Assembly: GCA_009377445.1 (NCBI GenBank)
Contig: WHUA01000004.1
Location: 85,273-149,272, forward strand
DNA from: Alphaproteobacteria bacterium
Lineage (GTDB): Bacteria > Pseudomonadota > Alphaproteobacteria > UBA8366
DNA length: 64,000 nucleotides
Direction: 5' to 3'
The first letter of the stretch is position 1, and each line of letters begins with the position of its first letter. The position numbers and the translations under genes are program-made. The notes beneath the pieces were generated by a model. The model was not told the origin of the DNA and did not search any database. It worked only from the letters and a program-made list of their open reading frames with translations. This document shows positions 6,854 to 60,122 of this stretch, piece after piece.

Positions 6854-7894
6854 ATGAGCCACGCAGCCCAGCCGCAGCCCGACCGCCAGATTCCGGCTTT
6901 GCCGACGCTGCGCCAGCTCCAATACCTGATCGCGCTAGCCAAATACCGCTCCTTCAGCCGTGCCGCGGCCGCCTGCTGCGTCACCCAGTCGACGCTCAGC
7001 GGCGCCATAAAGGAGCTCGAATCGACGCTGGGCGCCCGCCTTGTCGACCGCGACAACCGAAGCGTGATCGTCACCGGCGCCGGGGAGGACGCCCTCGCCC
7101 GCGCGCGGCGGATCGTCGCCGACGCGGAAGCGCTGCTCGACTGGGCGCGTCGCGGTTCCGGGCCGCTTTCCGGGACGCTGCGGCTCGGGATCATCCCGAC
7201 CATCGCACCCTTCTTGCTGCCCCGCGCGCTGCCGCGGCTCAAGGGGGCCTTCCCCGACCTCGTTTTGCGGCTGCGCGAGGAAACCACCGCAAAGCTGCTC
7301 GATTCCCTTCGGGCGGGCGAGCTAGATCTCGTCCTGATGGCCTTTCCCTATGACGCGCCGGGGCTCGAAACGGCGATCGTCGCGGAGGATCCGCTCATGC
7401 TGACCGAGCCGGGCACGGCGGCGGATGCGAAGCCGCGCGCCGGCATGGACGACCTGGCCGGGCGCCCGCTGCTGCTGCTGGAGGACGGCCATTGCCTGCG
7501 CGATCACGCGCTGGCCGCCTGCTCGCTCCCGAGCGCCCGGGTGGACGAGTTCGGCGCGACGAGCCTGTTCACCCTGGCGCGCATGGTGGAGGCGGGCTAC
7601 GGCGTCACGCTGCTGCCGAAGCTCGCCGTCGACGCCGGCCTTTGCGACAGCGCGAAGGTCACCGTCCGGCCCCTGAATTCGGCGGCGCCTGCGCGCCGGA
7701 TCGGCCTCGCCTGGCGCCGCAACGCGAGCCGCGCGGAGGAATACAGGCTATTGCTCGATTTCCTCAAGGATTCGGGGCTGTTCGGAACACCGGCCGTCCT
7801 CCCTCACCGGTCGCCGCCGAGCCAGCCTTTCCGCCAGAACATGACAAGCATGCCGGCCGCAACCAGCGCCATCAAAAGCAGCGCGAAGGGATAG
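6854..7894 (+). CDS. oxyR: LysR-family peroxide-sensing regulator OxyR
   Basis: The N-terminal HTH is LRQLQYLIALAKYRSFSRAAAACCVTQSTLSGAIKELE. LLLLEDGHCLRDHALAAC aligns with the E. coli OxyR redox Cys199/Cys208 segment. The 3' end runs 91 nt into the convergent corA. Confidence 0.88.
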   Translation: MSHAAQPQPDRQIPALPTLRQLQYLIALAKYRSFSRAAAACCVTQSTLSGAIKELESTLGARLVDRDNRSVIVTGAGEDALARARRIVADAEALLDWARRGSGPLSGTLRLGIIPTIAPFLLPRALPRLKGAFPDLVLRLREETTAKLLDSLRAGELDLVLMAFPYDAPGLETAIVAEDPLMLTEPGTAADAKPRAGMDDLAGRPLLLLEDGHCLRDHALAACSLPSARVDEFGATSLFTLARMVEAGYGVTLLPKLAVDAGLCDSAKVTVRPLNSAAPARRIGLAWRRNASRAEEYRLLLDFLKDSGLFGTPAVLPHRSPPSQPFRQNMTSMPAATSAIKSSAKG

Positions 7895-8965: not shown

Positions 8966-9889
8966 TCAGAGGGTCGCCGGGTCGATGTAGTAGGTGTCGT
9001 CCGGCGCCACGGTCAGATCCCACAGCATCCGCGCGCCGACCGCCAGCACCATGATCGCCAGCATCATCCGGAGCCGGTCGGCGGAAATGCGCGGCGCCAG
9101 CCGGGCGCCGAGCTGTGCGCCGACGACGCCGCCCACCAGCAGGAGCAGGGTCAGCACGATATCGACCGTCTGGAAGCGCTGCGCCTGCAGGAAGGTCACG
9201 TTGGCGGTGACGAAGATGATCATGAACAGCGAGGTGCCAACGACGACGGCGGTGCGCATTCCGATGAGGTAGATCATCAGCGGGACCATCAGAAATCCGC
9301 CGCCGACGCCCATGATCGCCGAAAGGATGCCGCCGACGAGGCCGACCGCGACCGGCAAGATCGCGCTGATGTAGAGGTGCGAGCGGTAGAATCGCATCTT
9401 GAGCGGCAGGCCGTGCATCCAGGTATGCCGGTGCGGCCCGCGATCCTGAACCCGCGGCATGCCCTTGCGCGCCTTGAACAAAGTGCGCAGCCCCTCGATC
9501 AGCATCAAACTGCCGATGGTTCCGAGCAGAATCACGTAGCTGAGCGCCACGACGAGGTCGACCTGGCCGTATTCGCGCAATACACCGAACAGCCAGACCC
9601 CGACGGTCGAGCCGCTCAGCGCGCCGATCAACAGGACGCCCCCCATCTTCACGTCGACATTGCCGCGCCGCCAGTGGACGAGCACGCCCGAGACGGAGGC
9701 GCCGAGCACCTGATTGGCGCCGGACGCAACGGCGACCGGTGCGGGAATGCCGAGGAAGATCAACAGCGGCGTCAGCAGGAATCCGCCGCCGACGCCGAAC
9801 AGTCCGGAGAGGAAGCCGACCCCGCCGCCGACCGCGAGAAGCAGGAAGATGTTCTCGGCGAGCTCGGCGATCGGCAGATAGATATACAA
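8966..9889 (-). CDS. TauE/SafE family sulfite/anion exporter (DUF81)
   Basis: 307-aa polytopic protein with duplicated GxGGG motifs (GVGGGFLLTPLL and MGVGGGFLMVPLM). TTG start. Confidence 0.85.
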   Translation of the reverse strand: MYIYLPIAELAENIFLLLAVGGGVGFLSGLFGVGGGFLLTPLLIFLGIPAPVAVASGANQVLGASVSGVLVHWRRGNVDVKMGGVLLIGALSGSTVGVWLFGVLREYGQVDLVVALSYVILLGTIGSLMLIEGLRTLFKARKGMPRVQDRGPHRHTWMHGLPLKMRFYRSHLYISAILPVAVGLVGGILSAIMGVGGGFLMVPLMIYLIGMRTAVVVGTSLFMIIFVTANVTFLQAQRFQTVDIVLTLLLLVGGVVGAQLGARLAPRISADRLRMMLAIMVLAVGARMLWDLTVAPDDTYYIDPATL

Positions 9890-10280: not shown

Positions 10281-10670
10281 AGGAACCTCCTGTGCCTCAT
10301 CACGCGCCGGAAAGGGCCGGCCTGACCCTCGAACGACACATCAACGCGGTCGCCGGTAACAGGTTCCGCCGAATCAGGAACGGGCTTTGCTGCGCCTGGC
10401 GCGCTCCGCGCGCTTCAGCTTTTCAGCCTCGTCGCCCTCGTTTCGCTGTCCGGCCATGATCCGGCGCCCTTCTGCAATGTGATGCCTGCAGAGAAAACGC
10501 CGGCCCGGAAGGCGCAGTTCCATGCGGCGCGCCGGTCACACCAGGCGCGATTCTGGTAGCCCGGTCTGCACAATCGAGCATCGCTTCGACGCGCCATATG
10601 CTACCTTTTCGGGGATACAGGGGTGCAGGTGACGCGCCCAGATCGAAACAATGGGACGGAGGGCTTGAGA

Positions 10671-11099
10671 ATGCTCAAGGAATTCAAAGAGTTCGCGATG
10701 CGCGGCAACGTGGTCGACATGGCGGTGGGCATTATCATCGGCGTGGCGTTCGGTAAGATCATTTCCTCCCTGGTGCAGGACATCATCATGCCGCCGATCG
10801 GCAAGCTGATGGGCAACGTCGATTTCAGCAATCTTTTCATCAACCTTTCGGAGGGAACATTCAATTCGCTGGCAGAGGCCCAGGCAGCGGGTGCGGCGAC
10901 CGTCAACTACGGATTGTTCATCAACACCGTTCTGGATTTCTTGATCGTCGCCTTTGCGATCTTCATGGTGATCCGCGCCATGAACAAATTTAAGCGGAAG
11001 GAAGAGCCGGCGCCGGCGACGACGAAGGAATGCCCGGAATGCCTGTCGACGATTCCGCTCAAGGCCAAGCGTTGCGCCCATTGCACGGCGGCGGTTTGA
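10671..11099 (+). CDS. mscL: Large-conductance mechanosensitive channel MscL
   Basis: [31 protein letters not shown] is the canonical MscL N terminus. ATG 10671 follows GGAGGG. A C-terminal CPEC...CAHC extension is present. Confidence 0.9.
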
Positions 11100-48814: not shown

Positions 48815-49423
48815 TCAGCGGAACGTACTGAGGTGGCGAAGCTGACTCATGCGGGTCTGCATGTTCGTCACCGCCTGCGGCTGGATGAACTGGCTCGCTT
48901 GCAGATCGAGCTGGACCGCCATCTGTTGCTGGATGACCACGTTCGACAGCGTGTTCTGCACCGTCATCATGAAGCCGTTCGCGCCGTTGAAACTGGTCGG
49001 CGCCACATTGCCGTTCCCGGCCTGGACGGATGTCACGATCTGGTTGATCGCATCGGCCAGCTTCACGTTGCCTGTGACAGGCACACCGAACCCGCTCGTG
49101 TCGAAATTCGTCACGCCCCCGGTAATCCCGGTCGCGGGCGAGAAGGTAAGCCGGCCTTCGTAAATCCGCTGGCCGTTGATCTGGGCGGCGACATCTATCG
49201 CGAAATTCAACAGGCCGGTCGGCATGACGAACCCGCCCCGCATCCGGGCGAGCTGCTCGTCCGGAACCACCTCGTAGCGCGCGAATTCGGCGACAAGCTG
49301 CCGGCCGGCCGGGCGCATCTCCTGCGCCGGCGCCGGGCCCGGCGCCATTGCACCGACAAGGGCGAAGACGGTGAGCGCCCAGCCCGCCCGCCATCTCGCC
49401 GCCCCTGCTGCAATGCGCAACAT
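48815..49423 (-). CDS. Secreted protein sharing the cluster C-terminal VQN..NV.IQ..MAV motif
   Basis: Signal peptide ..APGPAPA-QE. VTSVQAGNGNVAPTSF and FMMTVQNTLSNVVIQQQMAVQLDL are related to the repeats of the 560-aa and 121-aa proteins. The start lies 1 nt after the upstream stop. Confidence 0.6.
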   Translation of the reverse strand: MLRIAAGAARWRAGWALTVFALVGAMAPGPAPAQEMRPAGRQLVAEFARYEVVPDEQLARMRGGFVMPTGLLNFAIDVAAQINGQRIYEGRLTFSPATGITGGVTNFDTSGFGVPVTGNVKLADAINQIVTSVQAGNGNVAPTSFNGANGFMMTVQNTLSNVVIQQQMAVQLDLQASQFIQPQAVTNMQTRMSQLRHLSTFR

Positions 49424-49424
49424 C

Positions 49425-50153
49425 TCAAAAATCCCCCGGCCTCGGCATCAATAAGTTGAACGAAGCGAGACTTGCCCGACTGAGCGCCGTGCCGAACGGC
49501 GCACTGTGGCGCACTTTCCAAGCCTCGGCCCGATTGAAGGTCTCGTTGGCCGACTTGTTCTTGTTCTGAATGACGAAGGCGATGCCGTTCCACATGGCTT
49601 CAAACTCGCCGCGCGGATAGGTCTTCATGCCAAGCGCAGGATCGCCGACCAGGACCTCGGTATCGCTGACGCCCTTCACCACCACGAAATGCAGGTACCC
49701 CTTCAAATTCATCAACACCACACCGGGGATCTTCGCCTGCACGAAGGCATCGAGCGGCGCCTTGAAGCCGTTCGCCGCGAAACCCTCCCGCTCGAGGTAT
49801 TCCTTCATGTCCAGCAGCGAGAAGCCCTGCGTCCGAATCTTCGACTCCTCGCCGAACAGGAGCATCGAATCGAAAATCTCCATCTCAGTCACGGCGAAGC
49901 CGTAGTGATAGGTGAGAAGCGTCGCGAGCGCGGCCGATCCGCAACTGAAGTCGAACTGTTGCTTGATGACGTCCTTGAATCGCGCCTCCTTGATGCTCGT
50001 CACCTCGACGCGGACATAGCCCAATCCGCCCGGCGCGACGGTTCCCGCCACGGACGGCGCTGCATGCGCCAGGAAGGCCATAAGGCTGCCCGAGGCGATG
50101 CAGGCCGTGACGCAGCGCAAACGCGCCCGCGAGCTATTGAACGAAGTTGACAT
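49425..50153 (-). CDS. Periplasmic C39-like cysteine peptidase (FapD-like)
   Basis: Has an N-terminal signal/anchor. QQFDFSCGSAALATLLTY supplies the catalytic Cys, and GYLHFVVVKGVSDTEVLVGDP supplies the His and Asp. No ABC transporter domains are attached. Confidence 0.75.
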   Translation of the reverse strand: MSTSFNSSRARLRCVTACIASGSLMAFLAHAAPSVAGTVAPGGLGYVRVEVTSIKEARFKDVIKQQFDFSCGSAALATLLTYHYGFAVTEMEIFDSMLLFGEESKIRTQGFSLLDMKEYLEREGFAANGFKAPLDAFVQAKIPGVVLMNLKGYLHFVVVKGVSDTEVLVGDPALGMKTYPRGEFEAMWNGIAFVIQNKNKSANETFNRAEAWKVRHSAPFGTALSRASLASFNLLMPRPGDF

Positions 50154-50499
50154 CGACCGCCATGTTGGTCTGGATGATCACATTGTTGCCGATATTCTGA
50201 ACGGCCACGAAGGCGCCCGCCGAGTTCGCGAGCGCGCCGTTACCGATCACATTGTTCGCGGTGAACGCCCCGCTCGTCGACGAATTTCCGGTAAGCGTCG
50301 CCGTCATGTTGCCGAGCGTACAGCCCGACGCGCAGTCCGGCAGCGCCATGCCGCGCAGGGTTTCGAGCTCCGCCGCGTCGACGGGCTGTCCGAAATGCGC
50401 CTGCAGCAGCGCCGCATCGTCGGCGCGTGCTGCTCCCGAGACGGCAACCGCCGCCGCCGCGGCGAAGATGAGAGAAACTCCGATACTGGGGGTCATCAT
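50134..50499 (-). CDS. Small secreted protein carrying a single copy of the cluster repeat
   Basis: Signal peptide ..VSGAARA-DD. NVIGNGALANSAGAFVAVQNIGNNVIIQTNMAV aligns position by position with the NTIDGGAFNDGAGIATVQQNNGDNNVINA unit of the 560-aa protein. ATG 50499 is preferred over TTG 50511. It overlaps the next gene by 20 nt. Confidence 0.6.
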   Translation of the reverse strand: MMTPSIGVSLIFAAAAAVAVSGAARADDAALLQAHFGQPVDAAELETLRGMALPDCASGCTLGNMTATLTGNSSTSGAFTANNVIGNGALANSAGAFVAVQNIGNNVIIQTNMAVDVNFVQ

Positions 50500-50542
50500 A
50501 CGGATTCCCAAGTAGTGCAGTCTTCTCCGCTAACAAAGAGGT

Positions 50543-50587: not shown

Positions 50588-52270
50588 TTAAGGCGTAATG
50601 ACGTTGGCCACCACGGCAATCGAAGACTGTATCGCGTTGTTGCTGCCGTTGTTCTGCTGCACCGTCTTGATGCCGGCGAAGCCGTTGAACGAGTCGGACA
50701 GCGTGTTCTGGTATCCCGGCGGCACGTTCGTCGGCGCGATGACTGCAATATTTCCGGATACCACCGCCGTGATCGTCGTATCGTCGACGATACTGCCATT
50801 GAACCCGACGAAGTTCGCATTGTCGCTGAGCCCGGCGACGACCGCCTTGGATGCGTTGATCACGTTGTTGTCGCCGTTGTTCTGCTGCACGGTGGCGATA
50901 CCGGCGCCGTCGTTGAAGGCGCCGCCGTCGATCGTATTGACGCGGTCGACGTTGGCGGTCTCGACGGCGAGATTGTTCGTGACCTCGGCATGCGTACGCG
51001 CGTCTACCGCCGCATCCCCTCCGTCGATCTGACCGCTGGTGAACAGCGTGGCGACAACGGCAGTCAGCGCATTCATTGCGTTGTTGTTGCCGTTGTTCTG
51101 CTGCACCGCCGTCAAGCCGACGGCTTCCGAGAACGAGCCCTCGTCGATGGTGTTGATCCGGTTCTGATCCTGGTCCGTCGTGTTGAGGCTCGAGTTGTTG
51201 TTCGTGACAAACCCGGCCGCGCTCACGACAACAGCGGACGCGTCATCGATATCATCCACGGTGAGGAAATGTGCCCGCACCGCGTTGCCGACGTTCATGG
51301 CGTTATTGTCGCCGTTGTTCTGCTGCACGTTGACGATGCCGCCCGGACCCACGAACGCATCGCTGATGAGGTTCGTCCGATCGTACGGCGTCGGCGGTCC
51401 GGCGTCGCTCTGGGCAAAGCCGGTATTGTTGGTCACCACCGCGGTTGCAACGAGCGATTGCAGTGCGTCTTCGCTGGGGTCTACGTCGGTCGTGGTGCCG
51501 AGGTCGGCGATGACGGAGTTGGCCGCCTGGATGACGTTGCCGTTGCCGTTGTTCTGCTGCACCGACGCCATGCCGACGAACTCCGCGAATGCGCCGCCGT
51601 CGATCGTGTTGGTCCGCTCGCCGGTGATATCGCCGCCGCTGACGACGTTCACCTCCGATGTGATAAGGCCGGTCACGGTCGCTTCGAGGAGAACTTCCTG
51701 CGAGCTGTCGTCGTGGTTCTCGCCATTCTGGCCGAAGAGGTTCGGGCCGATATTGGCCGAAACGACGTCGCCGATCCCGAGGACGTTCCCGTCGCCGTTG
51801 TTCTGCTGCACATCGACGATGCCGCTGGCGCCCGCGAACGCATCGGTGATCGTATTCTCGCGGAAGGACGACGCGAGCGGCCCCGGCGCGTTGTTGGAGT
51901 AGTCGCCGCCGATCGTCGACCCGCGAAGCCAGAGCTGCTGCGACACGTCACCCCCGCTCCCAGGGGCCGCCGTGCTGATGACGACGTTCGACGCGATTCC
52001 TAACGCGTTGCTGTTGCCGTTGTTCTGTTGGTCGTGGCTGATGCCCGTAAAATTGTTGGCATAGCCGCCACTGATATCGTTGCTTCGCAGAGATCCGGGA
52101 TCCAGCGTAAAGTTGACGCCTACGAACTGATCCAGCGTGAGCTGATCCGGCAAGGTGGGTACGAGCCCATTGTCGTTCTGCTGGATCTGCTGTGCGAGCG
52201 CCCCGCTCGAGGCCGCCCCGAGCAGAACCAGGGCCGAGGCCGAAGCCAGCAATACGTTTTTGAAGTTCAT
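50588..52270 (-). CDS. Secreted 560-aa N/Q/G-rich protein with seven VQQNNGxNN repeat units (putative fibre/amyloid major subunit)
   Basis: ATG 52270 follows AAGGAG. Signal peptide ..SSGALA-QQ. It carries seven units of the form N-T-I-D-x-x-F-x-x-x-x-G-I-x-x-V-Q-Q-N-N-G-x-x-N-x-x-x-x-x-x-x-V. No Cys residues and no recognisable anchor, autotransporter or RTX domain. Confidence 0.75.
   Translation of the reverse strand: MNFKNVLLASASALVLLGAASSGALAQQIQQNDNGLVPTLPDQLTLDQFVGVNFTLDPGSLRSNDISGGYANNFTGISHDQQNNGNSNALGIASNVVISTAAPGSGGDVSQQLWLRGSTIGGDYSNNAPGPLASSFRENTITDAFAGASGIVDVQQNNGDGNVLGIGDVVSANIGPNLFGQNGENHDDSSQEVLLEATVTGLITSEVNVVSGGDITGERTNTIDGGAFAEFVGMASVQQNNGNGNVIQAANSVIADLGTTTDVDPSEDALQSLVATAVVTNNTGFAQSDAGPPTPYDRTNLISDAFVGPGGIVNVQQNNGDNNAMNVGNAVRAHFLTVDDIDDASAVVVSAAGFVTNNNSSLNTTDQDQNRINTIDEGSFSEAVGLTAVQQNNGNNNAMNALTAVVATLFTSGQIDGGDAAVDARTHAEVTNNLAVETANVDRVNTIDGGAFNDGAGIATVQQNNGDNNVINASKAVVAGLSDNANFVGFNGSIVDDTTITAVVSGNIAVIAPTNVPPGYQNTLSDSFNGFAGIKTVQQNNGSNNAIQSSIAVVANVITP
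50646..52033 (-). repeat. In-frame periodic coding repeat (seven copies of CCGTTGTTCTGCTGCAC on the plus strand)
   Basis: Copies lie at 50646, 50874, 51090, 51312, 51546 and 51795, with a variant at 52017 (CCGTTGTTCTGTTGGTC). Spacings are 228, 216, 222, 234, 249 and 222 nt, all multiples of 3. Confidence 0.85.
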
Positions 52271-52421: not shown

Positions 52422-52436
52422 GCAATGATCGTGCCA
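52422..52436 (-). promoter_or_regulatory. Consensus sigma-54 promoter upstream of the repeat-protein gene
   Basis: The minus strand reads TGGCACG-ATCA-TTGC, an exact match to TGGCACG-N4-TTGC. It lies about 150 nt upstream of ATG 52270. Confidence 0.7.
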
Positions 52437-52606: not shown

Positions 52607-53224
52607 TTATTTCCAATCCTGGTAGATCGCGAGAAGCGTACGCCGATCCGGAACGCCGGTTTCCGGCAGCTTCTTCTTTTTCTGGTAGGTGCTGATCGCC
52701 GTCGCCGTACCCTTGCCGAACTTGCCGTCGACGGCGCCCTTGTAGAGTCCCTGTTGCTTCAATGTCTGCTGCACGCGGCGTACGGTTTCCTCGAAGACGT
52801 GGATCTTTCCCTTGCCGGCCTCGATGCTTGCGACCGGCGATTGGCTCTCGATCCGGTATTTGTGCAGCTCGCGCGTCACGACATAGACGGCCGACGCGAA
52901 ATTGACTTTCTTGTTGCCGTCGCAGAAGGTCGCGACCACGCCGGATATGGCGTCTAGATCGAAATCCGCGGCGGCGTCATACGTCTCCGCGCCGAACTGG
53001 CTGTAGGCGGTAATGTAGCCGTTGGCCCATTCCCGGAAGAAGAGATAGGCCGGCGACGCGGCCTTGCGTTCGGCGAGGTAGCGTTCGCAGGGCTGGCTGC
53101 CGAACCCGCGGACAAAGTAGTTTCCTGCCTTGTCCCCTGCGCTTGCCGCGCTGGCCGACATCATGACGGCGGCGATGAACACCAGCAGCGCCAGCGTCTT
53201 CTTGTTGCTTTTCTTCGTAGCCAC
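52607..53224 (-). CDS. Secreted protein with C-terminal peptidoglycan-binding (PG_binding_1-like) domain
   Basis: GTG 53224 follows AAAGGGGA. Signal peptide KKTLALLVFIAAVMMSASAASA. The C terminus VRRVQQTLKQQGLYKGAVDGKFGKGTATAISTYQKKKKLPETGVPDRRT is a typical PG-binding repeat. The upstream part of ORF 52607..53635 is rejected. Confidence 0.65.
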   Translation of the reverse strand: MATKKSNKKTLALLVFIAAVMMSASAASAGDKAGNYFVRGFGSQPCERYLAERKAASPAYLFFREWANGYITAYSQFGAETYDAAADFDLDAISGVVATFCDGNKKVNFASAVYVVTRELHKYRIESQSPVASIEAGKGKIHVFEETVRRVQQTLKQQGLYKGAVDGKFGKGTATAISTYQKKKKLPETGVPDRRTLLAIYQDWK

Positions 53225-53265: not shown

Positions 53266-53622
53266 TCAGCGGACCTGCACGTTGACGCCGCGCGCGACAG
53301 TCGAGTTGACGCCGCTCCCCGGCGACACCCCGTTTCGTTTCGGCCGGCCCAACTCGTCGAACAGGATGACCGATACATCGCCCGGCGGCGGCGCATCCGC
53401 CTCGACGGCGGTTTTCGCCCCCAGGCCGGAGACCGCTCGCAATTCGGCATCGTTTAGCTCGCCGCGGGCCGCAAAGGTCCCGGCGGCGCCCGTGCCGGGC
53501 ATGCCTGCCGCGTCGGCTGCCGTGACGCGCGGACGGATTTCGTCCGCCACCGCCGGCATCGCCGCGAGGGCCGTTCCAGCGCATAGCATTGTTGTCGCCA
53601 ACAGGCGACACGAGAACCGCAT
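53266..53622 (-). CDS. Small secreted protein (118 aa), first gene of the minus-strand cluster
   Basis: ATG follows GAGGTG. Signal peptide MRFSCRLLATTMLCAGTALAAMPAVA. Third-position GC is high. I recognise no family. Confidence 0.5.
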   Translation of the reverse strand: MRFSCRLLATTMLCAGTALAAMPAVADEIRPRVTAADAAGMPGTGAAGTFAARGELNDAELRAVSGLGAKTAVEADAPPPGDVSVILFDELGRPKRNGVSPGSGVNSTVARGVNVQVR

Positions 53623-53665: not shown

Positions 53666-53680
53666 GCAAGAACCGTGCCG
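53666..53680 (-). promoter_or_regulatory. Sigma-54 promoter upstream of the 118-aa gene
   Basis: The minus strand reads CGGCACG-GTTC-TTGC; only the first base differs from TGGCACG-N4-TTGC. It lies about 45 nt upstream of ATG 53622. Confidence 0.65.
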
Positions 53681-53773
53681 CGCCGCCGCAAGGCGAATTC
53701 GGGCCGGCCAGCCTCGAATTGCCGTCTATTCCGCCTCGGAGGACGGCGTCTCCGCCGCATCGCACGGATCCGT

Positions 53774-53801
53774 CTGTAAATCCCCACTGTAAACTTTACA
53801 G
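53774..53801. promoter_or_regulatory. CTGTAAA half-site plus CTGTAAA-C-TTTACAG palindrome, candidate enhancer (UAS) for the 53666 sigma-54 promoter
   Basis: CTGTAAA lies at 53774..53780 and CTGTAAACTTTACAG at 53787..53801, about 95-135 bp upstream of the -24/-12 element. Confidence 0.5.
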
Positions 53802-53838
53802 CGCGCCGACGGCGCGCCGTTTCTGGTTTCCGTCCCGC

Positions 53839-55188
53839 ATGCCGCGTGACACAATCGTGCGCCGGAAAGGAGATTTTCCTTTGCCTCGTCTGGCCTTTTC
53901 ATGGGGCGCTGGCTGCCTGCTCGCGATACTTTCCGCCTGCTCGAACGACGACGCCCTGATCAAGACGACCGCCGGGTACCCGCCGGTGGAGATGCAGCCG
54001 TCCGATCTGCCGAGCTTCGCGATCGGCGACAGCTTCACCTTCGACAATCCGGACGAGACATGGACGGTTTCGGGGATTCAGGACGGGCTGGTGATTTGGC
54101 GCAGCTCGCTCGGCGGTTCCCGAAAGACGGTATTCGCCCCCTTCGTCCCGCCAATCGAATGGACGGCGAAGGGTAACGCAGCCGGTGAAGAGCGACTGAC
54201 CGGTTGGGGCGACGGGCTCTTTCCTTTGAAGGGCGGGAAGAAGACGGCGTTCCGGACGCGCGCGCGAATGAACGGAGAAGCCGATGCGACACCGTTCGAG
54301 TGGAAATGTTACTCCGGCAATCCGCGCAAGGTGACGGTGAAGGCCGGCGCGTACGCGGCCTATCCGCTCTTCTGCCGGCGCAACGACGGCCTGACGACGC
54401 AATCCTTCTACGCCCCCGAAGTCAATGCGCCGCTGATGATAACCCAGCGTAAGCGCCCGGCCCCGGCGGAAACGCGCGAGCTGGTGGGCTTCAAGCTCGC
54501 CACAGGACCGCGGATTGCCGCGACGCCGGCCCACGGCCTGCCGAAGGGTGTCGCGCTCGCCGCCGTGGAGCCCGCGGCGCGTCCGGCGCAACCCGCCGGA
54601 ACAGCCGTCGCCGACGCTGGCGGCGCGCCCGTCGCGCCGTCGTCGGCACCGTCGTCGACACCAGCGTCCACACCGGCTTCAGCATCGCCGCCCGCTGCGG
54701 CCCTTGCCCCACCGCCGCAGATCGCCCACGCGGCTGCGCAGCGCCCGCCGGCCATCGCGGCGCGCCCCGCCGCGCCCGTCTCCAGTGGGACGCCGACGAT
54801 CGCGCCGCCGCCGCGTATCGGGCCGCCGGCCGCCGCAACGCCGCCGGTAATCGCGCTGGCGCCGCCCGCCAGCGCGACGACGCCCGCGGACAAGGTTGAG
54901 CCGCGCGCGGCAAGCGGCCCAACCTTGTCCGCGGGCTTCGGCGCGCAAATCGCGTCCTATCAGGTTCCCGCGAACGTCGAACGCGGCTGGGTCAGCCTGC
55001 GGCAACGGCACGGGCCATTGCTGGACAGCGTGGGACACGTGGTCCGGCGGGTCGAACTCGGCGGCGGCAAAGGCGTCTTCCACCGATTGCTTGCCGGGCC
55101 TTTCCCGGCGCGTTCGTCCGCGGAGCAACTGTGCAGGTCGATCCGCAGCCGCGGCGCCGGATGCATTGTCCAGCCGCTCGAAGGGTGA
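53839..55188 (+). CDS. Lipoprotein with long Pro/Ala-rich linker and C-terminal SPOR domain
   Basis: Lipobox LAILSAC-S, then ~130 aa of P/A/S low complexity. The C-terminal FGAQIASYQVPANVERGW...FHRLLAGPFPARSSAEQLC is a SPOR (septal peptidoglycan-binding) pattern. Confidence 0.7.
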   Translation: MPRDTIVRRKGDFPLPRLAFSWGAGCLLAILSACSNDDALIKTTAGYPPVEMQPSDLPSFAIGDSFTFDNPDETWTVSGIQDGLVIWRSSLGGSRKTVFAPFVPPIEWTAKGNAAGEERLTGWGDGLFPLKGGKKTAFRTRARMNGEADATPFEWKCYSGNPRKVTVKAGAYAAYPLFCRRNDGLTTQSFYAPEVNAPLMITQRKRPAPAETRELVGFKLATGPRIAATPAHGLPKGVALAAVEPAARPAQPAGTAVADAGGAPVAPSSAPSSTPASTPASASPPAAALAPPPQIAHAAAQRPPAIAARPAAPVSSGTPTIAPPPRIGPPAAATPPVIALAPPASATTPADKVEPRAASGPTLSAGFGAQIASYQVPANVERGWVSLRQRHGPLLDSVGHVVRRVELGGGKGVFHRLLAGPFPARSSAEQLCRSIRSRGAGCIVQPLEG

Positions 55189-57033: not shown

Positions 57034-57435
57034 GGTATTGCCGCGCCGCGTATGAAGCATGAGAAAGTCCGGGAAGGATCGCATCGTCGGATTCGCCTCC
57101 TGATACCTTTGTGGCCGTTTCTTAACGCATTCCGCAGGCAAAAGTTCCAGGCTACTACTACGTAGAGAATCGGTCTTTTTCCGTGGAGGGAATGTGGCAA
57201 TTCCATGTTTACTGGAATTGCCAACCGAGATTGCAATTACGCAGGTCCGTCGCCGATACGCCGCGGCCGGATCGGTTACCCCCAAATGCACGAAGTGCGG
57301 CAACAGGACGTTCAATAGCTGGAGCGTCATGCAACTGGATCGGAACACGTAGCTAAATCGACTTAAGCCCGTGTGATTGCACTACTCACCGAATCGGTGT
57401 TTAAAAGTAGTATCCAATATATTGGGAGAGGCATC

Positions 57436-57954
57436 ATGTGGAGCAAAGCTGGTATTTTAGTAGTAGCACTCGTAGCATTCGCCGCGCCCGCCAAAGCATT
57501 GCTGGTGGATGGTAGTTTTAAGATCACTCTCACGGGAGAGAAGATCGTTCCAAGTCCCGGCACGTTCGATGTAATCGGCAGCTCCGTTGTGAACTTCACG
57601 ATGGACCTATTTAGCAATAATGACGGTCCAGATCGCTTCAGTACCTATAGCACTGACTCGACGCTCGAACCGTCGAACTTCGGCACGGTTCTTGAGGGCG
57701 ACATCACGAACGACTGGCATGCCGGCTTCGGTATCATCCAACGAATTACATTCACCACCGAAGGAACTTGGGTATGCATTGGAGTCAGTGGGTGCGCAAC
57801 GAACTCATTTTTTCTGGAACTCGGCGACCGCGGTAGTTACACAATCTCGCCCGAGGTTTCGGCCGTCCCGCTTCCCGCTGCGGTGTGGCTGTTCCTGTCC
57901 GCCCTGGGCGGCCTTGGCCTGTTCGGGTGGCGAAAGCGTCGGGCAGACGCGTAG
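57436..57954 (+). CDS. Secreted protein with C-terminal VPLPA-CTERM-type sorting signal
   Basis: ATG follows GGGAGAGG. Signal peptide ..AAPAKA-LL. The C terminus VPLPAAVWLFLSALGGLGLFGWRKRRADA has the motif, a TM helix and a basic tail. Lower-GC gene. Confidence 0.65.
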   Translation: MWSKAGILVVALVAFAAPAKALLVDGSFKITLTGEKIVPSPGTFDVIGSSVVNFTMDLFSNNDGPDRFSTYSTDSTLEPSNFGTVLEGDITNDWHAGFGIIQRITFTTEGTWVCIGVSGCATNSFFLELGDRGSYTISPEVSAVPLPAAVWLFLSALGGLGLFGWRKRRADA

Positions 57955-58354: not shown

Positions 58355-58443
58355 TGGCGGAGGGACCGGGAATCGAACCCGGGCAACGGTATTACCCGTT
58401 GACGGATTAGCAATCCGCTGCATTACCGCTCTGCCATCCCTCC
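58355..58443 (-). tRNA. tRNA-Ser (anticodon GCU)
   Basis: The 89-nt reverse complement GGAGGGATGGCAGAGCGGTAATGCAGCGGATTGCTAATCCGTCAACGGGTAATACCGTTGCCCGGGTTCGATTCCCGGTCCCTCCGCCA folds as a class II tRNA. It has a 7-bp acceptor stem, anticodon loop TTGCTAA, a long variable arm (AACGG/CCGTT), a T-arm CCGGG-TTCGATT-CCCGG and an encoded CCA. Confidence 0.92.
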
Positions 58444-58586
58444 GCCGGGCCGGCCGATGGCCGGGCCAAGCCATGTAGCCCGCCCACCCGCCCCTGTCAA
58501 TGTTCGGCGGGGCGACAGCCGCGAAACTCATGCTAAGGTGCCGCGGTCACCGGCAAGGCTGCCGCAATGAAACCAGAACGGGAATA

Positions 58587-60122
58587 ATGCACCCGCCCCG
58601 CCGCCCGGCCGCGGACACGGCAGAGGCCGCCGCCCTGACGCCCGCCCGCCGTGCGGTGCTGACGGCCGGGATCATGCTGGCGACGGGGCTGCAGTTCCTC
58701 GACGGCACCATCGTCGCGGTGGCGATCAATCACATGCAGGGATCGCTCTCGGCGACGCCGGAGCAGATCTCTTGGGTCGCCACCGCCTATCTCGTGACCG
58801 CCGCGATGTTCATGCCGCTGGCCGGCTGGCTGTCCGGCCACATCGGCCGGCGTCGCATGATGCTGGCCGCCATCGTCGCCTTCGCGATCCTGCCGGTGCT
58901 GACCGGCTCGGCCGCCAGCCTGGAGCAGATGATCCCGCTCCGCATCGCGCTCGGCCTGTGCGGCGCGGTGCTGGTGCCGCTGTCGCAGGCGGCGATGCTC
59001 GACATCTACCCGCGCGAGAAGCACGGCATGGCGATCGGCCTCTGGGGCATCGCGACGACGCTGGGGCCGGCGGTGGCGCCGGTGCTGGGCGGCTGGCTGG
59101 CCGAGACCTATAGCTGGCGCTACGCCTTCTACGCCATCACGCCGTTCAGCCTGGTCTCGTTCCTGATCCTGCTGCCGCTGCTGCCGGAAGGGCTGCGCCA
59201 GGGACAGCGGCGCTTCGACATGCAGGGCTTCCTGATGCTCACGGTATCGGTCGGCGCGCTGCAGCTCATGATCAACCGCGGCGAGCGCGAGGACTGGTTC
59301 GCTTCGACGGAAATCATCGTCGAGGCGGCGATTGCGATCACCGGCTTTTACATGTTCGTCGTGCACCTGTTCTTCGCGCGCCAGCCCTTCCTCAACCTGG
59401 CGCTCTTCAAGGACCGCAACTACGTCGCGGGGCTGCTGTTCGTCGTGCTGTCCGGCCCGACGCAGTTCGCAACCGTGCTGATGATGCCGATGATGGTGCA
59501 GACGGTGCATGCCTATCCGGTGCTGATGGCGGGCTTCATCATGGCGCCGCGCGGCATCGGCACGATCATCTCGATGGCGATCGCCGGATGGCTGACGCAG
59601 CGCATGGACACGCGCATCCTGATGATCGCCGGCTTCGCGATGCTGGTCGTCGCGAATTATGCGGTCGCGGTGTTCGGTCCGGATATCGGCTTCTGGGACA
59701 TCGTCATAGCCTCATTCGGCCAGGGCTTCGGCATGGGATTCACCATGGTGCCGCTGAGCCTGATCGCCTATTCGACGCTCAGCCCGGCGCTGCGCCCGGA
59801 AGGCACCGCGCTGTTCAACCTGGTGCGGGGGCTGAGCGGCGCGATGTCCGTGGCGCTGATCGTCGCCGTGCTGACCCGCACCGCGCAGGTCACGCGCAGC
59901 ACGCTGGTCGAACACATCCGCCCGGCCCGCGAGCTGCTCTACGGCGCCGACATCCCGGCCCTGTGGGCCATCGAGACGATGCCCGGCATCGCCTCGCTCA
60001 ACCGGGAAATCGTGCACCAATCCATGCTGATCGCCTTCCAGAACAGCTTCCTGATCATGGTCGTGGTGCCGGCGGCCGGAATCGTCTTGACGCTGCTCAT
60101 CGGCAGGCACAAGACTCAATGA
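58587..60122 (+). CDS. MFS transporter, DHA2 (EmrB/QacA) family (second copy)
   Basis: VAINHMQGSLSATPEQISWVATAYLVTAA and GRRRMMLAAIVAF. 14-TM type. ATG 58587. Confidence 0.85.
   Translation: MHPPRRPAADTAEAAALTPARRAVLTAGIMLATGLQFLDGTIVAVAINHMQGSLSATPEQISWVATAYLVTAAMFMPLAGWLSGHIGRRRMMLAAIVAFAILPVLTGSAASLEQMIPLRIALGLCGAVLVPLSQAAMLDIYPREKHGMAIGLWGIATTLGPAVAPVLGGWLAETYSWRYAFYAITPFSLVSFLILLPLLPEGLRQGQRRFDMQGFLMLTVSVGALQLMINRGEREDWFASTEIIVEAAIAITGFYMFVVHLFFARQPFLNLALFKDRNYVAGLLFVVLSGPTQFATVLMMPMMVQTVHAYPVLMAGFIMAPRGIGTIISMAIAGWLTQRMDTRILMIAGFAMLVVANYAVAVFGPDIGFWDIVIASFGQGFGMGFTMVPLSLIAYSTLSPALRPEGTALFNLVRGLSGAMSVALIVAVLTRTAQVTRSTLVEHIRPARELLYGADIPALWAIETMPGIASLNREIVHQSMLIAFQNSFLIMVVVPAAGIVLTLLIGRHKTQ

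Follow-up and report, generated by a model that had tools for sequence, protein, structure and literature searches.

Fap amyloids are a main structural component of Pseudomonas biofilms. A 2013 survey detected Fap in no classes other than Beta-, Gamma- and Deltaproteobacteria, gave the minimal repeat motif X15-G-X4-N-X3-G-X6-N-X7, and listed FapA loss and a detached fapF among the known variations of fap loci (PMC3792158). A 2018 review mentioned, but did not describe, fapD-fapF pairs co-localised in other phyla, and still presented the substrate of the essential peptidase FapD as undetermined (PMC6173800). By cryo-electron microscopy (cryo-EM), FapC has disordered linkers, and its imperfect repeats, 52-62 residues long, each fold into a single Greek-key layer made up of five short strands; a 2025 survey of GTDB counted three repeats in 94% of FapC (PMC12392863). 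We looked at a stretch of 64,000 nucleotides (hereafter the window) from contig WHUA01000004.1 (assembly GCA_009377445.1) of an uncultured alphaproteobacterium, which contains a gene for a 560-amino-acid (aa) protein with seven repeats built around a QQNNG core. We propose, with a probability of about 0.7, that this protein corresponds to FapC and serves as the major secreted subunit in a divergent fibre system of the Fap type. Literature searches on FapC, FapF and Alphaproteobacteria together, and on "QQNNG", returned nothing relevant and no paper describing a QQNNG family.

The seven-repeat protein and its putative export genes

The N-terminus of the 560-aa protein resembles a typical Sec signal (MNFKNVLLASASALVLLGAASSGALA, followed by QQ), and an AAGGAG ribosome-binding site lies 10 nt 5' of the ATG. 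The protein is rich in N (74 residues), A (64), G (63), V (59), S (45), T (43), D (42) and Q (32) and contains no C, so that the cysteine-free, secreted-type protein described in the initial annotation was recovered by translation of the open reading frame (ORF). The QQNNG cores start at residues 81, 155, 238, 316, 390, 462 and 538, and the resulting spacings of 74, 83, 78, 74, 72 and 76 aa agree with the period of 72-83 aa reported earlier. We constructed a repeat hidden Markov model (HMM) of 46 positions from 278 units of 39 family members. It detected seven units in the ORF, each with an E-value of 2.5e-13 to 2.8e-19, and no further significant ORF within the window; all the units quoted in the initial annotation are present as written. 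The seventh unit (R7) is the best conserved across the family, and the protein terminates there without a C-terminal cap. Tandem Repeats Finder did not detect the repeats, because their period is too long and the copies are too divergent for it.

The repeat gene heads a minus-strand cluster, followed by the gene of the small secreted protein p125, a C39 peptidase gene and the p202 gene, with a barrel gene in convergent orientation. The C39 peptidase is 46% identical to Pseudomonas FapD. It matches the NCBIfam FapD model at 1e-48 (165 bits against a cut-off of 330) and Pfam Peptidase_C39 at 4e-22, retains the catalytic Cys/His motifs DFSCGSAALAT and GYLHFVV (DFSCG.AALAT and GY.HFVV being common with FapD), and shows an N-terminal hydrophobic signal. 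The convergent gene encodes a protein with a signal peptide, a coiled coil (residues ~34-95), a Pro/Ala-rich linker and a beta-barrel (165-446) with an LPTGTG motif. Its residues 165-445 match the PDB entry of FapF (5o65) at 4.8e-30, and the protein matches the NCBIfam FapF model at 3.6e-45 (154 bits against a cut-off of 700). It also aligns over its full length with Pseudomonas FapF (BLASTP 1e-36, 26% identity), coiled coil and PTG motif included. The C39-like peptidase and the coiled-coil barrel to which the initial annotation had tied the repeat protein are thus homologues of FapD and FapF, respectively. A different secretion route, as in another characterised adhesin class, had been named there as a possible refutation; the route predicted here is that of Fap, a characterised system that this annotation had not named.

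The two small proteins of the cluster carry repeats of the same type. Orthologues of p125 have one clear C-terminal QQNNG-type repeat (repeat HMM E 2e-9 to 1.5e-5), and HMMs of the C-terminal repeats of p125 and p202 match the units of the 560-aa protein at 1e-7 to 1e-10, the best unit being R6 for p125 and R7 for p202. Moreover, p125 and p202 resemble one another in sequence.

A word-indexed search returned 92 homologues of the 560-aa protein, nearly all metagenomic, the few named ones being from Azospirillaceae, Indioceanicola and 'Alphaproteobacteria'. An exhaustive profile search of 1.84 billion representatives reached 354 proteins at E <= 1e-3 (89 at <= 1e-30), up to 3,063 aa in length, and the labelled members came nearly all from alphaproteobacterial metagenome-assembled genomes (MAGs). 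The best genome match, 52% identical, is found in an uncultured Rhodospirillaceae MAG, and the one other record of the exact protein is on a Logan contig of 16 kb from run SRR10173838. Several relatives are encoded by tandem or giant repeat genes (L013 8001-14635, L016 2880-11906, L017 5834-16351; the protein P0213 has 3,063 aa). A single JGI contig of 5.29 Mb bears about 15 paralogues (P0033-P0059), and four loci, L010 among them, belong to one Sneathiellales MAG.

A pattern-seeded scan of 185,579 species genomes gave 18 loci, each of them in a MAG. The labels of these MAGs are Rhodospirillaceae, Sneathiellales, Kiloniellales, Azospirillaceae, Paracoccaceae, Limimonas or unclassified Alphaproteobacteria, with two further ones, Anaerolineae (L018) and Flavobacteriales (L019), whose loci are near-duplicates of the alphaproteobacterial L016 and L011 and are therefore probably mis-binned contigs. 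In 17 of the 18 loci, spread over several alphaproteobacterial orders, a FapD-like gene comes after the repeat gene or genes. Most loci also contain p125, p202 and a FapF-like gene (on the same strand or convergent), and many a peptidoglycan-binding protein and an activator. The exception, L010, is an extra paralogue without accessory genes. The neighbourhood of C39 peptidase and barrel, whose constancy the initial annotation had proposed to check, is thus kept in all loci but this one.

The relation of the repeats to those of FapB and FapC was approached at the family level. The Pfam family FapBC (PF27129) was recorded as a weak or faint match for some members, and the NCBIfam FapB model matched 9 of the 39 (best 1.5e-5), the match of P0075 spanning model positions 21-186 of 190. 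Library-wide, the family profile reached three-repeat proteins of ~250 aa at 1e-11 to 2e-16, and all ten of these intermediates that were tested matched NCBIfam FapC (down to 1e-16) and FapB (down to 1e-14). When compared with intermediate and Pseudomonas FapB repeats, the QQNNG profile gave an hhalign probability of 96.8% (E 2.7e-10), although the target units had been chosen by the pattern G-x4-[NQT]-Q-x2-G, which favours a match there. The R.N.I..SF part of this match played no role in choosing the units, and the pattern common to both profiles reads R.N.I..SF....GI..V[QN]Q..G..N. By eye, the repeat register fits the minimal Fap motif G-x4-N-x3-G with Gln in place of the first Asn. The strict motif is not found in the subunit, whose core is G-x4-Q-x3-G and whose last N is unconserved. 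Altogether, these comparisons suggest that the seven units are remote homologues of the FapB/FapC imperfect repeats.

The AlphaFold2 (AF2) model of the 560-aa protein, computed from a 39-sequence alignment, reached a mean predicted local distance difference test (pLDDT) of 84.6 and a predicted template-modelling (TM) score of 0.89. Residues 1-41 are disordered in the model and the remainder is all-beta, with five strands per period. The first strand (12-14 residues) lies in the "linker" and has the pattern D..Q.L...A.VT; the second is shorter and comes past a tight turn (NN in three of six linkers); the third is R-x-N-x-I; the fourth is G-I-x-x-V-Q-Q-N-N; and the fifth (11-12 residues) comes past a G-x-x-N turn. 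There is no N- or C-terminal cap, and the chain stops two residues past the last strand. AF2, which had been suggested as a check, therefore confidently predicts a regular all-beta repeat fold. The linkers, which had been described as variable, are indeed less conserved than the cores among 31 distant aligned homologues of <60% identity (30% against 57% identical), yet they can be aligned (column occupancy 88%), share a D..Q.L...A.VTNN-like pattern and are predicted to form beta-strands. In the model, the linkers would thus be part of the fold and not free spacers.

Weighing the alternatives

The proposal of a functional-amyloid or beta-helical fibre subunit, already made from composition and repeats, is supported by the adjacent FapD and FapF homologues, the synteny in 17 of 18 loci, the remote similarity to FapB/C repeats and the all-beta fold. 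Besides the choice of units mentioned above, several results weigh against it. Direct searches with the 560-aa protein gave no match in Pfam, in NCBIfam (Fap models included) or among PDB sequences, and the repeat-unit profile gave only a chance match against the PDB. By hhalign, the repeat profile did not match a single Pseudomonas FapC and matched a single FapB weakly (E 1e-3, probability 20%), so that intermediate sequences were needed to make the link. A Foldseek search of the PDB with the AF2 model returned nothing significant (E at least 0.18, TM < 0.15). Its non-significant list consists of beta-helix and solenoid proteins, including CsgA (8c50), and does not point to a specific fold; it lacks 9u4u and 9nqd, the cryo-EM entries of FapC. 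That one period corresponds to one layer is inferred from the strand counts of the model only. The matches to FapD, FapE and FapF are all far below the NCBI equivalog cut-offs, which makes these proteins relatives of the Pseudomonas Fap proteins by sequence and not orthologues by that standard. Finally, the locus contains no FapA and no canonical FapB, and its gene order (p118, peptidoglycan-binding gene, repeat gene, p125, D, E, convergent F) departs from fapABCDEF.

The confident monomeric beta-solenoid model would fit equally well a surface rod or adhesin that leaves the cell through the FapF-like pore, is perhaps held by p125 or p202, and does not polymerise. We consider this unlikely. AF2 does return, with confidence, a complete all-beta repeat structure for a single chain, the linkers are predicted to be structured and are alignable among orthologues, unlike the disordered linkers of FapC (PMC12392863), and family members of 1,100-3,063 aa would be long enough to serve as rods alone. 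The Foldseek list, none of it significant, is also one of monomeric beta-helix adhesins and enzymes. However, AF2 also predicts the monomers of CsgA and FapC as solenoids, and both stack into fibres (PMC12392863). Moreover, the model has no capping element at either end of the chain, the homology of the repeats is to amyloid repeats, and the single-repeat paralogues of the operon are best understood as partners in templating or capping. We therefore prefer the polymerising subunit.

A second question was how the DNA of the core is kept. The initial annotation had reported a 17-mer nearly invariant in six of the seven units and had argued for selection on the core or for its conversion. This 17-mer, CCGTTGTTCTGCTGCAC, is present in six exact copies and is found nowhere else in the window at up to two mismatches (expected 0.01); unit 1 (GAC CAA CAG AAC AAC GG) differs from it at three bases. 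In the subunit gene, Q is encoded by CAG in 30 of 32 cases and N by AAC in 61 of 74. We think it rather improbable that the string is maintained by homogenisation at the DNA level, through gene conversion or unequal exchange among the repeats, and not by selection on the peptide. What speaks for homogenisation is the codon for V, which is GTG in all six cores against 14 of 53 (26%) outside them: the chance of GTG CAG CAG AAC AAC, given the amino acids, is ~0.145 per unit and ~9e-6 for six units, and codon identity among the cores of this gene is somewhat above expectation. Against it, DNA identity between units outside the core is merely 39-70% and tracks protein identity, so that conversion tracts would need to be ~17 nt in length. 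In addition, GT[G/T]CAGCAGAACAACGG[C/T] prevails in the repeats of orthologues that share only 30-50% identity and come from 20 other loci, VQQNNG varies little or not at all across 39 proteins, and the full-length alignment suggests positional orthology of the repeats. In the cores of the 20 loci, CAG is used at 169-175 of 180 positions and the first AAC at 174 of 180. Because the identical DNA string dominates in such distant orthologues, the 17-mer is mainly explained by an invariant VQQNNG peptide together with a strong CAG/AAC codon bias. Selection, in the form of selection on the peptide, thus stands from the initial proposal, while there is no need to invoke gene conversion.

The Val codon before QQNNG is a separate observation. 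Among the 180 cores of the 20 loci it is GTT 77 times, GTG 68 times and GTC 32 times. GTC is thus infrequent despite a GC content of 56-68% and although it is the commonest Val codon elsewhere in the gene of the window. It is a local codon preference.

Finally, we give almost no credence to a repeat protein functionally unrelated to its neighbours (an S-layer, type I secretion or ice-binding-type protein merely lying beside a FapD/FapF pair): other phyla have co-localised fapD-fapF pairs that lack canonical Fap subunits (PMC6173800) and the 560-aa protein has no direct database match, but the adjacency holds across several orders, two small proteins of the operon share the repeat type, homology to FapB/C repeats is supported at the family level, and the Sec signal is accompanied in the locus by no C-terminal RTX or type I secretion signal and by no ATP-binding cassette (ABC), membrane fusion protein or TpsB partner.

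Accessory genes, regulation and a candidate FapD substrate

The features of the locus are collected in Table 1.

Table 1. Positions of the repeat gene, its units and the neighbouring elements in the window.
Feature	Position	Strand	Remarks
Major repeat subunit gene (560 aa; putative FapB/C superfamily, QQNNG subfamily)	50588..52270	-	ORF, repeat HMM, AF2, profile comparisons
Signal peptide of the 560-aa subunit	52193-52270	-	residues 1-26
Repeat unit R1, divergent (HDQQNNG)	51965..52102	-	aa 57-102
Repeat unit R2	51743..51880	-	aa 131-176
Repeat unit R3	51494..51631	-	aa 214-259
Repeat unit R4	51260..51397	-	aa 292-337
Repeat unit R5	51038..51175	-	aa 366-411
Repeat unit R6	50822..50959	-	aa 438-483
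Repeat unit R7	50594..50731	-	aa 514-559
GC-rich hairpin, 11-12 bp stem, right after the subunit stop codon	50543..50570	-	
p125, small secreted protein	50134..50511	-	125 aa; 120 aa from ATG at 50496
p125 leader-like motif AELETLRGM, after signal peptide	50347-50373	-	
p125 degenerate single Fap-type repeat, C-terminal	50137-50256	-	
FapD-like periplasmic C39 cysteine peptidase, 242 aa	49425..50153	-	NCBIfam, Pfam, identity to FapD
p202, FapE-like, signal peptide, one degenerate C-terminal repeat	48815..49423	-	
p202 double-glycine leader-like motif YEVVPDEQLARMRGG	49232-49276	-	p202 residues 50-64
FapF-like outer-membrane transporter, 450 aa	47447..48799	+	convergent with operon
Sigma-54-dependent enhancer-binding activator, 418 aa	45956..47212	-	beyond FapF-like gene; adjoins locus in relatives too
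Sigma-54 promoter TGGCACGATCATTGC	52422-52436	-	~150 nt upstream of subunit ATG
Secreted protein with unassigned N-terminal domain and C-terminal PG_binding_1 domain	52607..53200	-	conserved neighbour, nine related loci
p118, 118-aa small secreted protein, SVILFDELG motif	53266..53622	-	in some related loci only
p118 leader-like motif AELRAVSGL	53422-53448	-	

The p202 family aligned with Pseudomonas FapE (hhalign 93%, E 3.5e-7), but over just 32 N-terminal columns (VPDEQLARMRGGFVMPTGLLNFAIDV against EMNDAELAELRGRFVMPGRIISFGIVM). The NCBIfam FapE model matched p202 at E 0.05, and its N/Q-rich C-terminal repeat is similar in kind only. The PG_binding_1 protein might tether the export apparatus or the fibre base to peptidoglycan. 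The NCBIfam search gave no FapA match among the proteins of the locus. The small protein p118 was considered as a FapA homologue, which is unsupported: BLASTP against FapA gave E 3.3, with only a short GEL.D..L..VS resemblance. In p125, a C-x2-3-C pair (PDCASGCT, residues ~57-64; 50330-50350, minus strand) lies just past the leader-like motif. The pair is found in p125 and its closest orthologues (CASGC, CNEGC, CDPC) and is missing from more distant ones; Pseudomonas FapC has a CxxC near its C-terminus (GCTVC).

The double-glycine motif of p202 lies ~30 residues beyond its Sec signal, and the 14 distant and 20 close homologues compared have L58, R62, G63 and G64 without exception. Classical leaders cleaved by C39 peptidases have the consensus LSxxELxxIxGG, with conserved hydrophobic residues at -4, -7 and -12 and GG (or GA/GS) at the end. 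In p202 the register is V(-12), E/Q(-8), L(-7), M(-4), G(-2), G(-1). p202 thus shares the classical conserved positions with the double-glycine leaders of bacteriocin ABC exporters, and the adjacent C39 peptidase keeps the catalytic Cys and His. It differs in having a characteristic Arg at -3 and in that the motif follows a Sec signal, which points to a free-standing periplasmic peptidase, while in bacteriocin export the peptidase acts at the cytoplasmic face of an ABC transporter. A leader-like motif follows the Sec signal in all three small secreted proteins, p202, p125 and p118, and is degenerate in p125 (RGM) and p118 (SGL); orthologues of p125 keep L-x3-R-G, the last residue being variable. 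At the aligned position, Pseudomonas FapE has ELAELRGR, with RGR against the RGG of p202. In the NCBIfam search, p202 matched no bacteriocin-leader family model. A homologue search with p202 gave close relatives only (at least 57% identity), so the motif was examined in the loci already collected. An AF2 model of p202 with 20 close homologues was uninformative (pLDDT 39), and its helix before the GG site carries no weight.

In 2017, Rouse et al. reported that secretion needs the active-site cysteine of FapD, whose target they described as unknown, and that FapE alone came without N-terminal peptides (PMC5557850). Because an invariant ELxxMRGG double-glycine motif follows its signal peptide, p202 is a candidate substrate of the FapD-like peptidase, and p125 and p118 may be cleaved as well. 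The invariant site would offer a concrete cleavage site for the FapD question, both here and at ELAELRG-R of Pseudomonas FapE.

The promoter of the repeat gene is the sole exact TGGCAC-N5-TTGC (-24/-12 consensus) within the window, and an exact consensus is located ~150 nt upstream of the orthologous gene in seven other loci (L003, L004, L009, L011, L012, L013 and L019). A one-mismatch copy, CGGCACGGTTCTTGC, is located at 53666-53680 (minus strand), ~45 nt upstream of the start of p118. The activator has no recognised N-terminal sensor domain and is 44% identical to an activator of a Pseudomonas fap locus over the AAA+/helix-turn-helix part only. Both Pseudomonas fap loci that we looked at have a convergent sigma-54 activator with a VpsR-like N-terminal domain (L023 9695-11020 and L024 9628-10953, both on the minus strand), so that a bacterial enhancer-binding protein as neighbour is common to the canonical and the divergent systems. 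The activator flanking these two fapABCDEF loci is presumably BrfA, the enhancer-binding protein that directly activates fapA in P. fluorescens (PMC13101488). Every locus examined has such an element: strong hairpins of different sequence are found at positions equivalent to that of the hairpin past the repeat gene in L001 (~10654-10680), L003 (~9769-9812), L011 (~7592-7627) and L012 (~10437-10483). The hairpin is thus a candidate attenuator or mRNA-stabilising element favouring the subunit over the accessory proteins.

The amyloid properties, secretion and cleavage of the products of the locus are predictions from sequence and from the AF2 monomer model, and the following sequence of events can be proposed. 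The activator and sigma-54 would turn on the subunit gene, and the hairpin past its stop codon would keep the subunit mRNA in excess over that of the accessory genes. Every product would cross the inner membrane via Sec. The subunit would stay unfolded in the periplasm, as its lack of cysteine fits, and be threaded through a trimeric FapF-like pore. Outside the cell, each period of ~75 aa would fold into a five-stranded cross-beta layer, with ladders of the invariant residues (Q, Q, N, N, G and R-x-N) holding the layers, and the uncapped ends of the seven-layer solenoid would stack head to tail into an amyloid-like fibre. The single-repeat p125 and p202 may use the same export route, the FapD-like peptidase removing their propeptide at an L-x-x-hydrophobic-R-G-G/x site, and the processed proteins may act as fibre nucleator, cap or cell anchor. 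The PG-binding protein would provide a tether to peptidoglycan.

More tentatively, the QQNNG family may represent a distinct Fap-type fibre architecture. The ~75-aa period, linker included, would be a large ordered cross-beta layer, and a chain of 7 to more than 40 periods a long solenoid segment. Initiation or anchoring would be licensed by the FapD-like removal of an ELxxMRGG propeptide from p202 and p125, which would template or cap the conserved C-terminal repeat. If this doubtful but specific proposal is right, the long-sought substrate and recognition motif of FapD-type peptidases would be identified, with ELAELRGR as the cognate site in Pseudomonas FapE. A fibre as such would not surprise a specialist; the GG site makes the question of the FapD substrate directly testable.

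Other features of the window lie further away. A 193-aa secreted protein (57373-57954, plus strand) ends in a VPLPA-CTERM sorting signal (27.2 bits for TIGR03370, which exceeds the cut-off), implying that the organism also has a surface-protein system of the exosortase type. As to RNA genes, the window yielded a single one, a tRNA-Ser (GCT; 58355-58443, minus strand), after which comes a DHA2/EmrB-type efflux gene of the major facilitator superfamily (58500-60122, plus strand). A 489-aa protein (53719-55188, plus strand) has a long Pro/Ala-rich low-complexity middle; the matching gene call of the Logan contig (435 aa) gave a weak SPOR-domain match, and a SPOR protein also adjoins the locus in L003.

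Comparison with known systems

With curli (CsgA/CsgB), the system would share N/Q/G-rich imperfect repeats in a stacked beta-solenoid, a minor repeat-bearing nucleator and export of an unfolded subunit via a dedicated outer-membrane channel. There is no sequence homology, and the repeat protein gave no Pfam or NCBIfam curlin (Curlin_rpt) match. Curli units are strand-turn-strand units of ~20 aa without linkers, the CsgG channel is unrelated to FapF, no csgG-like gene was found in the locus, and curli have no C39 peptidase. The Fil 'pilus' of Acinetobacter (FilA subunit; Hori et al. 2011, cited in PMC11784438) likewise has a FapD/FapF-type export pair for a surface fibre. The matches to its components (NCBIfam FilB 2.4e-34 for the C39 peptidase, FilC 3.1e-17 for the barrel protein) are weaker than those to FapD and FapF, and neither the repeat protein nor p125 or p202 matched a Fil subunit model.

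The closest system is Pseudomonas Fap (fapABCDEF). It comprises FapC and FapB as major and minor amyloid subunits, the chaperone FapA, the Sec-exported C39 peptidase FapD, FapE, the trimeric FapF, a 12-stranded outer-membrane barrel whose N-terminal coiled coil is periplasmic, and the regulator BrfA. Both have N/Q/G-rich imperfect repeats in the register N1, I/L3, S7, G13, V17, N/Q18, G22, N25, linker-separated cores and a subunit that is secreted or, here, predicted to be, and cysteine-free in the present case. The homologues of FapD (46%) and FapF (26%, with coiled coil and barrel), a possible homologue of FapE (by its N-terminal motif), the sigma-54 activator adjoining the locus and the predicted five strands per repeat layer are also shared. 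The differences are as follows. The protein has seven repeats, and its relatives up to dozens, in place of the usual three. Its core is VQQNNG-x2-N against GVNxAAGxGNQQxN in Fap, and its regular spacing and strand-predicted linkers contrast with the disordered linkers of FapC. FapA and the three-repeat FapB are replaced by a 125-aa single-repeat protein after the major gene and by an extra peptidoglycan-binding protein that the Pseudomonas fap operon does not encode. The FapF-like gene frequently lies in convergent orientation, the FapE-like protein has the canonical RGG site where Pseudomonas FapE has RGR, and the host class, Alphaproteobacteria, was absent from the 2013 survey. The system would thus work like Pseudomonas Fap and probably belongs to its superfamily, but it departs from it in the strict motif, FapA/FapB, gene order and equivalog cut-offs. 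As additions it has the invariant QQNNG core, regularly spaced periods that number from seven to dozens, linkers predicted to be ordered, p125, a PG-binding protein and a canonical GG site. The locus adds a rare, mostly alphaproteobacterial branch to Fap, useful for learning which features of a Fap-type fibre are essential, and the QQNNG family may be a source of long, regular cross-beta scaffolds.

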